IMG/VR virus record: IMGVR_UViG_2609459852_000001
Direction: 5' to 3' (one strand)
Length of the DNA stretch: 9,265 nt
Origin: a virus
Lineage: Monodnaviria > Loebvirae > Hofneiviricota > Faserviricetes > Tubulavirales > Inoviridae
Both the position numbers and the translations under genes were made by a program. The notes under the pieces were generated by a model, which worked only from the letters and a program-made list of their open reading frames with translations, was not told where the DNA came from and did not search any database. How positions within the stretch are numbered: the first letter of the stretch is position 1; each line of letters begins with the position of its first letter. Positions 1-9,265 of this stretch are shown in pieces.

Positions 1-686
<686 letters not shown>

Positions 687-687
687 C

Positions 688-2125
<1,438 letters not shown>

Positions 2126-2151
2126 TCATGAAGATATTCCGCTTCCTCGAC

Positions 2152-2197
2152 CACTCGCTCACTACGTTCGGTCGCTGGGTCTGCGGCGAGCGGAGTG
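2152..2197 (-). promoter_or_regulatory. Imperfect inverted repeat in the 111-nt pI-pIV spacer
   Basis: CACTCGCTC (2152..2160) pairs with GAGCGGAGTG (2188..2197), giving 9 bp with one bulged G (2192) and a 27-nt loop. No U-tract follows on the minus strand, so this is not a classical terminator. It sits in the only sizeable intergenic gap inside the phage block. Confidence 0.3.
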
Positions 2198-2206
2198 TCC
2201 TCTGTC

Positions 2207-3421
<1,215 letters not shown>

Positions 3422-3434
3422 TTACCCCGCAAAA

Positions 3435-3794
3435 TTACTTGCCAATATTAAGTCCATTTGATTTAAATAAATCATAAACCAATCGATACACTCTATCCTT
3501 ATAAAGATATATGTATGAAATAAATTGAACATGGAGGATAATATTAAAGCAGTCCTGAATATTTAAAGGCAGGTAACTGAATGCAACTATAATAACATCG
3601 AGTTTATTAACATCGGAGATTTGACGAATAATAAAATTAACGGCAGATACAAGAGCATAATATGAAGTGTAGCAAAGACCAAGATAAGAAAGGAGCTTAG
3701 CCCATGCAACAGCTTTATCACCGATAACTCCTGCAATGAAACGTAGTGATTTTAAAACAACATCAACAAAAAAAGCACCTAAAATGGCCCACAT
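3435..3794 (-). CDS. pVI-like minor coat / virion-tip membrane protein (positional call)
   Basis: 119 aa and hydrophobic, with several predicted helices. Its ATG (3794..3792) overlaps the pIII stop (TGA 3796..3794) as TGATG. Size and position match Ff gene VI. The gene is very AT-rich: I hand-counted 16/60 G+C in 3481..3540. Confidence 0.75.
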   Translation of the reverse strand: MWAILGAFFVDVVLKSLRFIAGVIGDKAVAWAKLLSYLGLCYTSYYALVSAVNFIIRQISDVNKLDVIIVAFSYLPLNIQDCFNIILHVQFISYIYLYKDRVYRLVYDLFKSNGLNIGK

Positions 3795-5203
3795 CAGAGT
3801 TTTACCTCACGTTCAAATAATGTACGACGAGAAATAACAAAAACGCGTAACATGGTTATCATATAAATAGCATACTCAAGAACAGAACGAACATAATCGT
3901 CATAAGCTTTTGCAAAATGGCTTGTATCAATCTTGAAATTAATCGCGCCAGTCAACGGAAGATTAAAGCTAAATTGTAAAGTAAAAGGAAGAGCAGTTCC
4001 ATTATTTGTATTTACCAGTTTGTCAATATTAACTGTAAGCCAATTGTTATTATCATGACTCTCACTTCCCTGTCCTGGCAAGTAATGCGAAAGCTCCCCT
4101 AAAGGGAAATCCCCATCAGGCAAAGAAGAAGCTATATTCTGACTAATATCTTTAATACCATTGTCCAGTGAATTTAATGCATTATTCATATCAGTCTGAG
4201 AAACAGAAAAAGCATTATTTAAATCATTCACTGACACCCATATTGTTTTTAACCAGCCCAAAATACCATCAAGCCAGCCATTGTCATCGCCGGATGAGCC
4301 ACCGGAGCCTGAACTACCGCTACCGGATGAACCGCCGGAGCCCGAGCCGGAGCCACCGCTACCGGATGAACCACCGGAGCCTGAACCTGAACCACCACTG
4401 CCCGATGAGCCGCCGGAACCCGAGCCGGAGCCACCGCTACCGGATGAACCACCGGAGCCAGAACCTGAACCACCACTGCCGGATGAGCCGCCGGAACCCG
4501 AGCCGGAGCCACCACTGCCGGATGAACCGCCAGAGCCTGTCGTATTATCGCAATTGTCGTCGTCACAACCAGAGCCACTCCCTGTATTGTCGTCAGGATT
4601 TTTATTGGCGGCAGCCACGCCAACAGAACGCATACTCTGAGCGATACAATTCCCGTCGTCATCACACTCGTTAAAATCAATCAAATAACGACAGCCATTA
4701 ATTTCCAGGGACTGAGATTCCTGCCCGTTACCCGTATCAACCCAGACAACATCACCAAGAGAATATGAAAAGTCCTTAATTACCGGACGGGAAAGACAAT
4801 TTTCTTCGGTAACCGGCTTATTATATTCAGGTGTCAAATCACCCTCACCTCCCTGAAAAGCAAGGGTGCAGGTTTCCCACTCTTGCTTGTCTAAATCCCA
4901 GACTTTATATGCATGCCATTTGGCAGAAACAAAATTCCCAACGGTAGAAGGTGCGGCAGAAACCTTTGAAGGATTGTCGCCGCAATAATGAATTATTCCG
5001 GAACATGCATCAACACTGGCCCAGCCACAAAAAATATGACCAGCCCCCCTGGCTAATTTAATCGACGTCCCCGCGTCCGAATAAGCTGTCCTGCAGGATA
5101 AACGGCCTGCACACTGAACAAGTGCATCCGGATTTTCTTTCCCCTCAGCAAAAGAAAACGAGGAAAAGAACAAAAACAGAAACGGAAAAATAAGACGAAT
5201 CAA
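3794..5203 (-). CDS. pIII-like adsorption / minor coat protein
   Basis: 469 aa. The start is TTG (5203..5201), preceded by AGGAG with a 7-nt spacer. The protein has a signal peptide (MIRLIFPFLFLFFSSFSFA|EG), a Cys-containing N-terminal domain, an 83-residue pure Gly/Ser linker, a C-terminal domain and a hydrophobic anchor (YAIYMITMLRVFVI). This is the same domain logic as M13 g3p. Confidence 0.88.
   Translation of the reverse strand: MIRLIFPFLFLFFSSFSFAEGKENPDALVQCAGRLSCRTAYSDAGTSIKLARGAGHIFCGWASVDACSGIIHYCGDNPSKVSAAPSTVGNFVSAKWHAYKVWDLDKQEWETCTLAFQGGEGDLTPEYNKPVTEENCLSRPVIKDFSYSLGDVVWVDTGNGQESQSLEINGCRYLIDFNECDDDGNCIAQSMRSVGVAAANKNPDDNTGSGSGCDDDNCDNTTGSGGSSGSGGSGSGSGGSSGSGGSGSGSGGSSGSGGSGSGSGGSSGSGGSGSGSGGSSGSGGSGSGSGGSSGSGSSGSGGSSGDDNGWLDGILGWLKTIWVSVNDLNNAFSVSQTDMNNALNSLDNGIKDISQNIASSLPDGDFPLGELSHYLPGQGSESHDNNNWLTVNIDKLVNTNNGTALPFTLQFSFNLPLTGAINFKIDTSHFAKAYDDYVRSVLEYAIYMITMLRVFVISRRTLFEREVKL
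4289..4537 (-). repeat. In-frame 39-nt tandem repeat (78-nt super-period) encoding the (GGSSGSGGSGSGS)n linker
   Basis: The stretch is 83 consecutive Gly/Ser codons. It contains five perfect 13-aa units plus partial copies. At DNA level two synonymous 39-nt variants alternate (A-B-A'-B'), with only 1-3 differences between super-repeats. Confidence 0.95.
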
Positions 5204-5223
5204 GCAAAAACTCCTGAAATGAT

Positions 5224-5247
5224 TAAAAAAGCGCCCCGAAGGGCGCT
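5224..5247 (-). terminator. Rho-independent terminator immediately after the major coat gene
   Basis: The minus strand reads AGCGCCC-UUCG-GGGCGCU followed by UUUUU. This is a 7-bp GC-rich stem (5230..5236 / 5241..5247), a UUCG tetraloop and a T-tract (5224..5229). It starts 16 nt after the coat stop, the same placement as the terminator after gene VIII in Ff phages. Confidence 0.85.
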
Positions 5248-5262
5248 GTCGTTAAATAACTA

Positions 5263-5523
<261 letters not shown>

Positions 5524-5529
5524 TTAAAA

Positions 5530-5700
5530 TTAATTAACAGCATCGCTGAACATCCGGCAGACCAGAGTGAAAATAACACCAAGGCCAAAGCCAAGAAGCC
5601 AGCAGACAATCCAGACATACAGAACGGCCCAGTAAAGCTCTCCGTCCTGTACGCCAGAATTCAGTGCGGATAAAACACCGCTGAAATCAAATTCAGTCAT
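5530..5700 (-). CDS. Small single-TM protein (gIX-position minor coat candidate)
   Basis: The track start at 5733 is GTG with no SD. An ATG at 5700..5698 overlaps the upstream ORF's stop (ATGACTGA), which suggests coupling. This gives a 56-aa protein with one TM segment (YWAVLYVWIVCWLLGFGLGVIFTLV). The function is called from position only. Confidence 0.6.
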   Translation of the reverse strand: MTEFDFSGVLSALNSGVQDGELYWAVLYVWIVCWLLGFGLGVIFTLVCRMFSDAVN

Positions 5701-5833
5701 AATAACGCTGAACAGTAATGCTTTGTGAGTCACAGGCGCGAATCAGTTTTATTCCGATGCCAAAACCTGAAGAAAATAAAATCATTGCAGGAGCAGCAAA
5801 TAAAACAAAGTTCAGAAAATCAGCGTCAGACAT
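5693..5833 (-). CDS. Small single-TM protein (gVII-position minor coat candidate)
   Basis: The track start at 5887 is TTG and would overlap the upstream gene by 50 nt. An ATG at 5833..5831 lies 4 nt after that gene's stop (TGATGATATG) with AAGG upstream. This gives a 46-aa protein with one TM segment (FLNFVLFAAPAMILFSSGFGIGI). The function is called from position only. Confidence 0.6.
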   Translation of the reverse strand: MSDADFLNFVLFAAPAMILFSSGFGIGIKLIRACDSQSITVQRYYD

Positions 5834-5837
5834 ATCA

Positions 5838-6263
5838 TCAGCCTTTTTCTTTACCAGCGGGCAGTGCACCCAGCGGCTGACCGTCAAAACGTTTCATGGA
5901 GCCGGAAATAAAACGATACCAGACACCATGACGTTCAGAGCCTGTCGACCATGAGTTAACATCCACCGTGAGATAAACAGGTTTGCCCTGCAAATCAGGA
6001 CATGAATTAAAAAATTTAAAATCCTCCTCAGTACAGGAAAAGCGCTCATGCTCCTCACGGCGGACTTTTAATTTTCGGTCCTCATACGGATAGGCAATAA
6101 CAATGGCATATTTGGGTTTGGCCTCAGGGTTATAATGAGAACCCGTGGGTTTTAACTCCTCATCATTTATGACAGTGGCGTGAATAAAATATCCCGCCAT
6201 TGTCATACCTGCGGTAAAACCCTCAGGGGAAGGAAACGGAAAACTGTCATAAATTTGATTCAT
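5838..6263 (-). CDS. Hypothetical protein in the gene V position (candidate ssDNA-binding protein)
   Basis: 141 aa and soluble, with no TM segment. It has the strongest SD in the window (GAGGAG at 6272..6277, 8-nt spacer), consistent with high expression. It lies directly after Rep, as gene V does in Ff, and its size resembles the Pf1-type gene V protein. I recognise no sequence motif, so the function is positional inference only. Confidence 0.5.
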   Translation of the reverse strand: MNQIYDSFPFPSPEGFTAGMTMAGYFIHATVINDEELKPTGSHYNPEAKPKYAIVIAYPYEDRKLKVRREEHERFSCTEEDFKFFNSCPDLQGKPVYLTVDVNSWSTGSERHGVWYRFISGSMKRFDGQPLGALPAGKEKG

Positions 6264-6293
6264 AAATCAGACTCCTCAATGTTAAAAATTCAG

Positions 6294-9265
<2,972 letters not shown>

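Follow-up and report, generated by a model that had tools for sequence, protein, structure and literature searches.

A stretch of 9,265 nucleotides (nt) of inovirus DNA (IMG/VR record IMGVR_UViG_2609459852_000001; hereafter the window) represents an uncharacterised filamentous prophage of Escherichia coli, in which every gene lies on the minus strand. Its positions 3435-4288 carry the genes for pVI and for the C-terminal (C) domain of the adsorption protein pIII. We think it likely that this region encodes the cap at the pIII end of the virion and is a replaceable cassette, swapped by homologous recombination, and that its low guanine plus cytosine content (GC) is a standing property of every class of the cassette. 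The region and its left flank are made up as follows, with lengths of proteins in amino acids (aa) and database matches given with their expectation value (E).

2207-3418, minus strand: pI, the Zot-family assembly ATPase (PF05707, E=3e-9), conserved left flank of the cassette; GC 0.49.
3419-3434, minus strand: spacer between pVI and pI; class 1 has 16 nt here, classes 2 and 3 have 2-3 nt.
3435-3794, minus strand: pVI, 119 aa, cassette class 1.
3794-5203, minus strand: pIII, 469 aa.
3797-4195, minus strand: variable part of the class 1 pIII C domain, with the membrane anchor at its C terminus; GC 0.35.
4196-4288, minus strand: conserved island, spanning the opening ~31 codons of the C domain (DDNGWLDGILGWLKTIW.SVNDLN..FSVSQ), the right-hand joint relative to L007-type relatives.
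4289-4537, minus strand: Gly/Ser linker, six copies of a 39-nt unit (GSGGSSGSGGSGS), GC 0.69; an alternative recombination joint.
4544-4798, minus strand: second pIII domain (N2), class X, which reassorts against the cassette.
4799-5203, minus strand: distal N-terminal domain of pIII (N1) with the signal sequence, class A, a window-specific subtype.

The joint exchange of pVI and the C domain, apart from the receptor-side domains, had been proposed from the composition of the window alone, and it is strongly supported by the distribution of classes among relatives. In 34 loci, taken from complete genomes, draft genomes, IMG/VR and metagenomes and typed with pIII divided into N1, N2, linker and C domain, the class of the C domain is the class of pVI without exception (34/34; 1/1, 1b/1b, 1c/1c, 2/2, 3/3 and 3b/3b). 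The N2 domain follows no such rule, the combinations of N2 with cassette being X1, X2, Y1, Y2, Y3, Yb-1b, Yb-3b and Z-1b; X1, X2, Y1 and Y2, the four combinations that mark a mosaic gene, are thus all present. Moreover, clade alpha of pI carries classes 1, 2 and 3, and clade beta carries 1b and 3b. The identity matrices of the N domain, the C domain and pVI are incongruent in the manner that the sequence-only reading predicted, those of the C domain and pVI being always congruent. The same discontinuity is seen in the DNA by blastn. For the relatives in E. coli 600029 (L007) and on a Citrobacter plasmid (L009), identity to the window is 97% over 887-3437 and 95% over 4188-8291, and no match lies between the two segments; homology to the window is lost over 3428-4781 in L004 and L005 and over 3428-5224 in L002, L003 and L008, whereas L006 keeps the cassette at 97.6% and differs over 4537-4782. 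Between the window and L004, nucleotide identity is 98.8% in pI and 99.1% in pIV but falls to 48.7% in pVI and to 52.0% in the C domain's variable part. In general, flanking genes that are 97-99% identical stand next to cassettes that are only 46-53% identical, pI proteins 97-100% identical lie beside pVI proteins at 29-32%, and there are at least three deeply diverged cassette classes, with 29-50% aa identity. In many draft genomes of E. coli that carry family members, gene III is broken at the repeat. The pVI gene of L008 (E. coli Z1323CEC0015; 4054-4412) is split by a frameshift and unannotated, and reflects either a decaying prophage or a sequencing error.

Different classes can reside in one strain. 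E. coli 700481 harbours a prophage of the window type (H4, 99.9% identity) together with a class 3 relative, the latter in a tandem array at dif, next to hipBA, with flanks that are 94-97% identical. The dif array of this strain (L031, 12910-17158) also holds an unrelated inovirus of the Ff/IKe-like kind, with a Phage_CRI replication protein and Phage_DNA_bind, and the strain thus contains three types of filamentous prophage.

The borders of the exchanged segment were read from the ends of blastn segments and from identity in blocks of 30 nt. On the left, DNA similarity shared by all classes begins again ~10 nt upstream of the start codon of pI. On the right, the island at 4196-4288 retains 67-100% DNA identity in 30-nt blocks across all cassette classes, and the crossover between the window and L007 falls at 4188-4195, at the end of the island and ~95 nt inside the C domain; two proteins from the databases, P0008 and P0012, have an island of one class fused to the C domain of another. 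The repetitive linker DNA had been put forward as the recombination joint, and this holds for only some of the relatives. The pIII gene of the L006 type is similar to L004 in nt 1-696 and to the window in nt 654-1356, and the first 22 codons of its linker are built of the GGGSS/GGGNS unit of the L004 type, followed by the GSGGSSGSGGSGS unit of the window type. The L006 pIII is thus a chimera whose crossover lies inside the Gly/Ser repeat. The nearest relatives with a different cassette, however, cross over at 4188-4195, outside the repeat. Further joints are found at ~4782, at a conserved CLSRP motif between N1 and N2, and at ~5225, the right boundary of the replacements of the whole of gene III, just downstream of a terminator-like hairpin at 5230-5247. 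Only copies of the same phage have an N1 that is 99-100% identical to that of the window; the other A types, in relatives that are otherwise 95-97% identical, reach 75-79%. The receptor-side tip of pIII is therefore another hot spot of replacement or of fast evolution. The coat protein pVIII (5263-5505) is also unusually variable, at 82-88% aa identity.

Neither pVI nor pIII of the window has a match in Pfam. A profile of six pVI alleles, however, matches G6P of f1 (8b3o/8ixk/8jwx) at E=5.7e-4, aligning profile positions 17-110 with chain residues 11-108, and the window pVI matches phrog_1944, annotated as 'minor head protein', at E=3e-4. The protein is hydrophobic, its gene overlaps the stop of pIII by 1 nt and ends 16 nt upstream of pI, and this position is the same in all relatives. 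Homology, position and size thus support the assignment of 3435-3794 as an inovirus pVI. The architecture of pIII is the expected one, with a signal-like N terminus, receptor-side domains, a Gly-rich linker and a C domain of ~150 aa that ends in a hydrophobic anchor and basic residues, and the gene follows gene VIII and a terminator. The alternative N2 class, Y, contains PF05357 (Phage_Coat_A) and is similar to the domain of f1 that binds TolA. For the C domain itself the signals are weaker: the C-terminal part of pIII matches phrog_17820 (E=6.7e-7; a phage protein family of 442 aa, matched in its C-terminal part), hhalign against the C domains of f1, IKe and If1 gives E=0.0019 with a probability of 14% over the last ~60 residues only, and the search against PDB sequences returned no match for the C domain. 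An AlphaFold2 model of the domain is too poor for use, with a predicted local-distance difference test (pLDDT) score of 42; it contains helices, a strand pair and a long C-terminal helix, and the order of these predicted elements resembles, at that low confidence, the description of f1.

The cassette coincides with a sharp dip in GC. The five counts of G+C per 60 nt made by hand in the sequence-only reading (31, 16, 18, 17 and 25) are all exact on recount, and the low block that it placed at 3435 to ~4289 is recovered by an unconstrained search for two boundaries between pI and pIII, which gives 3430-4252 (GC 0.33 vs 0.50, z = 8.4). The GC of 3435-4288 is 0.338, against 0.488 in the phage part and ~0.50 in the flanks; in windows of 200 nt, it is 0.31-0.37 over 3401-4300, 0.45-0.56 in pI and pIV, 0.45-0.48 in the N-terminal part of pIII and 0.63-0.68 in the Gly/Ser linker. 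At third codon positions (GC3), the cassette has 71/281 G or C (0.25), compared with 87/220 (0.40) in the N-terminal part of pIII (Fisher p = 7e-4) and 182/404 (0.45) in pI (Fisher p = 1.5e-7). These tests confirm that the AT-rich block is real and exclude a chance fluctuation. Windows of 854 nt that are equally low make up 2.8% of all, and every one of them falls in a separate AT-rich region at 1-800. This second block is lower still (GC 0.26-0.32) and carries a DUF2726 gene; it is of variable length in IS110-type relatives and absent from dif-type relatives, and the gene looks like accessory cargo. A regulatory role of the AT-rich cassette, as an internal promoter or in silencing, was considered and rejected, as the promoter scan revealed no feature specific to the block: the 8 promoter-like sites, with 4.1 +/- 2.0 expected (~2 standard deviations), are not a significant excess.

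About half of the dip follows from what the cassette encodes. When pVI and the C domain are recoded with the codon usage of pI, pIV and pII, the expected GC is 0.41 and 0.45, respectively, midway between the ~0.52 of pI/pIV/pII and the observed 0.32 and 0.35, so that the dip is roughly half a matter of amino-acid content and half synonymous. The amino-acid half reflects the hydrophobic character of pVI and a C domain rich in Asn, Asp, Ser, Ile and Leu. The synonymous half consists of T-ending codons (T at third positions 0.53-0.55, C plus G ~0.25) and is evident in a GC3 of 0.23 for pVI and 0.26 for the variable part of the C domain (0.23-0.27 observed vs 0.49-0.51 expected). Such codons are typical of the structural genes of inoviruses; the same T-ending profile is seen in essentially all genes of f1 and IKe, and the base composition of pVI is nearly that of f1 and IKe pVI (T 0.42-0.43). 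The dip is conspicuous because pI, pIV and pII of the window family, at GC 0.49-0.55, are close to the 50% of the host. Across genes, lower GC tracks higher variability, GC decreasing from pII to pI and pIV, then to the N domains of pIII, and then to the C domain and pVI.

Is the composition, then, the mark of the exchange? The sequence-only reading had taken it so, holding that the unit came from a lower-GC relative. A recent import of this kind, with the composition as a donor signature not yet ameliorated, would account for a cassette whose GC3 is significantly below that of all its neighbours and whose history clearly differs from that of its flanks. But the dip is present in every cassette class (1, 1b, 1c, 2, 3, 3b and 3c), with GC of 0.30-0.37 in pVI and 0.35-0.37 in the C domain, and in all relatives, and composition is thus no evidence of import. 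Class 1 occurs also on the beta backbone (L010) and on a more distant one (L014), with DNA identity over the whole segment of 85% and 72-73%, respectively; in both, pVI has a GC of 0.32-0.34 beside pI and pIV at 0.48-0.54, and it has held steady there while pI/pIV beside it, at ~50% GC, diverged to identities of 87% and 73-79%. Even in the distant L052 (pVI 40% identical), GC is low across the pIII C domain and pVI. Changes in the cassette polarised by parsimony with L014 as outgroup are balanced, 55 from AT to GC vs 47 from GC to AT, which indicates a composition close to stationary. Protein searches with pVI and with the C and N domains of pIII retrieved E. coli-type sequences only, with no lower-GC donor of the cassette among the homologues. 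The dip in every class and lineage and the near-stationary changes together make it a family-wide standing feature, not a sign of recent foreign origin, and we regard a recent import as highly unlikely. At the opposite pole, one may suppose that the dip arises purely from the amino-acid usage of membrane proteins and that the region descended vertically, with no exchange at all. The conservation of the dip in all relatives, the near-identity in base composition to the pVI of f1 and IKe, and the fall in expected GC from ~0.52 to 0.41-0.45 on amino-acid content alone agree with such a constraint, which survives for about half of the dip. As a complete explanation it is refuted by the synonymous half, by the juxtaposition of nearly invariant pI with highly diverged pVI and by the presence of all four combinations of N2 with cassette, and it can be given hardly any credence.

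A third account concerns the age of the classes. They may form an old balanced polymorphism, in which frequency-dependent or diversifying selection keeps the cap types in each lineage, AT-richness being usual for long-lived hypervariable loci; selection could come, for example, from host defences or immunity that recognise the tip, or from interference between co-resident phages. Classes 1 and 3 are found on both alpha and beta backbones, the alpha and beta versions of these classes have diverged to about the same degree as pI/pIV (78-86% vs 87-88% nucleotide identity), classes on the same backbone are saturated, with third-position identity of 41-47%, and both the relation of GC to variability and the presence of different classes in one polylysogenic strain fit this account. 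Repeated exchange within separate alpha and beta pools would, however, give the same pattern; the ratio of nonsynonymous to synonymous change (dN/dS) between classes is saturated, and pVI of f1 is largely buried (PMC10175506). We consider this account unlikely as the explanation of the region, if less so than a recent import.

The reading that we prefer, a cap cassette swapped by homologous recombination with low GC as its standing property, is consistent with the breakpoints and with the co-residence of classes. The cassette would be swapped between related phage genomes within one cell, with the start of pI as the left anchor; the right anchor would be the Gly/Ser linker repeat or the conserved ~95 nt with which the C domain begins. 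The two genes would stay linked because the classes share no DNA inside the cassette. In addition, pVI and the C domain probably must match, packing against each other by analogy with f1, in which five pIII C domains interlace with five pVI subunits, each pIII being held by 12 hydrogen bonds and a salt bridge, and in which the C domain is needed for release and stability of the virion (PMC10175506); from this analogy and from the perfect co-inheritance of classes we infer a physical complex of the two in the window family. Several points weigh against this reading. The 34 loci are not independent, several being near-identical, and represent only eight or nine distinct domain combinations. The linkage of the C domain with pVI could be purely mechanical, resulting from the lack of internal homology. 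The pIII C domain was assigned from its position, its architecture and weak profile matches. The dip is also not shared by all Inoviridae, as f1, IKe and If1 have a uniform GC of ~0.40-0.44 and the pVI of fs2 is at 0.50. Finally, third positions changed from AT to GC slightly more often than the reverse (38 vs 22), which could hint at slow amelioration, although a saturated outgroup biases parsimony the same way. A further, more tentative proposal, possible but in our view doubtful, is that the cap classes represent tip complexes that are orthogonal and incompatible with one another, maintained in each lineage of the family as a balanced polymorphism of long standing by interference between filamentous phages residing together or by recognition of the tip by the host, and that the island and the Gly/Ser repeat serve as built-in joints by which host range and cap type are reassorted.

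In Ff phages the C domain of pIII and pVI sit together at one tip of the virion. The window family resembles Ff (f1, M13, fd; 8b3o) in the gene order VIII-III-VI-I-IV with a terminator after gene VIII, in a pIII with N-terminal domains, a Gly-rich linker, a C domain and a C-terminal anchor, and in a pVI of similar size and hydrophobic character, with a full-length profile match, T of 0.42 and GC of 0.32-0.39. It differs in the very low sequence identity and in a C domain that has no significant match in the PDB, in the single long Gly/Ser linker of its pIII (Ff has two Gly-rich linkers) and in its replication protein, a 667-aa endonuclease of the P2 gpA type, not pII of Ff; moreover, the Ff genome is uniformly at ~41% GC and hence has no dip. 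Engineered swaps in g3p of M13, in which the receptor-binding part is exchanged at a glycine-rich linker and the C domain is kept, are routine, and the same article cites If1/Pf1 chimeras (PMC12477597). Exchange of the N-terminal part, retention of the capsid-integrating C domain and a joint at the Gly-rich linker are common to these constructs and the window; in the latter, however, the exchange is natural and at the population level, its unit is the C domain plus pVI, and there is a second joint, at the island. Mosaic filamentous phages produced by modular recombination include VFJ-phi (PMC3731265) and UP-phi/Ypf-phi, with their module split (PMC7307601): co-infecting or tandem-integrated inoviruses recombine, modules have different nearest relatives, and the protein that varies most is g3p, which also varies in its Gly-rich repeat (PMC3731265; PMC7307601). 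The Lineavirus-like UP-phi is distinct from the window family, and the units described in those reports are modules of whole genes or several genes, or changes in repeat number; a break within gene III by which its 3' third is tied to gene VI is not among them. Within open-access text, we found no description of a natural intragenic joint that makes the 3' third of gene III and gene VI one allelic cassette. In enterobacteria, clusters for O-antigen synthesis are likewise hypervariable, AT-rich loci with deeply diverged alleles, conserved flanks that act as recombination anchors and GC below the genome average in all alleles. The discrete diverged alleles, conserved flanks and low GC throughout are shared with the window cassette; the difference is that the O-antigen locus is biosynthetic, whereas the cassette would specify a viral structural complex of two proteins.

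The window is 100% identical to a segment of the chromosome of E. coli O166:H15 JNE070796 that lies between ybiB and hcxB. Its remaining features are the following.

1-660, minus strand: DUF2726 gene (E=3e-26), AT-rich.
887-2095, minus strand: pIV secretin.
5230-5247, minus strand: strong terminator-like hairpin separating pVIII from pIII (AGCGCCCTTCGGGGCGCT, then a run of T).
5263-5505, minus strand: pVIII.
5530-5700 and 5693-5833, minus strand: two small open reading frames.
5838-6263, minus strand: pV-like protein.
6294-8297, minus strand: replication endonuclease of the P2 gpA type, 667 aa.
8300-9265, minus strand: IS110-family transposase, abutting the replication gene.

A collection of phage genomes contained no DNA match to the phage or to the cassette (megablast and blastn); by tblastn, the nearest pI proteins in that collection, from Vibrio fs2/VFJ, a Ralstonia phage and f1, are at most 35% identical. 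Searches of GTDB species-representative genomes with pI, as a single sequence or as an alignment, gave no match. Genes of the window phage were matched by only ~23 E. coli complete-genome records, and this number by itself suggests a family different from, and rarer than, CUS-1/Ypf-phi.

The ends of the integrated unit were compared in the window (8300-9265 and beyond), in L001 (5942-15440) and at the right ends of L004 and L005. The unit, comprising the DUF2726 gene, the phage, the IS110-family transposase and ~175 nt of non-coding DNA beyond the right end of the window, is inserted precisely between ybiB and hcxB relative to K-12, and the same right end (...AAACACACCAGG) abuts hcaR and yoaA in two other strains, in both cases just before the gene begins. 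Precise insertion and a right end shared at different genes suggest an inovirus that may integrate by means of an IS110-type recombinase. Filamentous prophages of Neisseria are known to use such a recombinase. Relatives that have no transposase form tandem arrays next to hipBA, in the dif region; the window itself contains no dif-like XerCD site, and no Rfam family was detected in the window, in L001 or in the non-coding right end. Between pI and pIV, a 70-nt segment (2137-2206) matches hundreds of ColE1-type plasmids of 1.5-3 kb at 92-95% identity. It is presumably akin to the region of pBR322 that holds a primosome assembly site, and may be a complementary-strand origin; DNA folding of the 70-mer gave no distinctive structure (z = -0.8 to -0.9). 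The segment is duplicated around an insert of ~0.6 kb between pIV and pI in L006, L007 and L009, and L052 has three copies (7600-8250).

Modular recombination in phages is well known, and the natural shuffling of modules within a gene described here is of moderate interest and not categorically new. It provides a natural, population-level example of a phage gene that recombines at its domain linker, in which the virion-embedded portion of the adsorption protein moves together with its structural partner pVI and the receptor-side domains move separately. As such, it offers evolutionary evidence in support of the structural picture of the pIII/pVI tip and would mark the residues that are required to co-vary between the C domain of pIII and pVI. 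The classes are also a source of naturally matched, possibly orthogonal, pairs of pIII C domain and pVI for phage display and for engineered filamentous phages. For genome scans the case carries a caution, since a sharp dip in GC coincided with a real cassette and yet gave no evidence of the direction or the recency of transfer.

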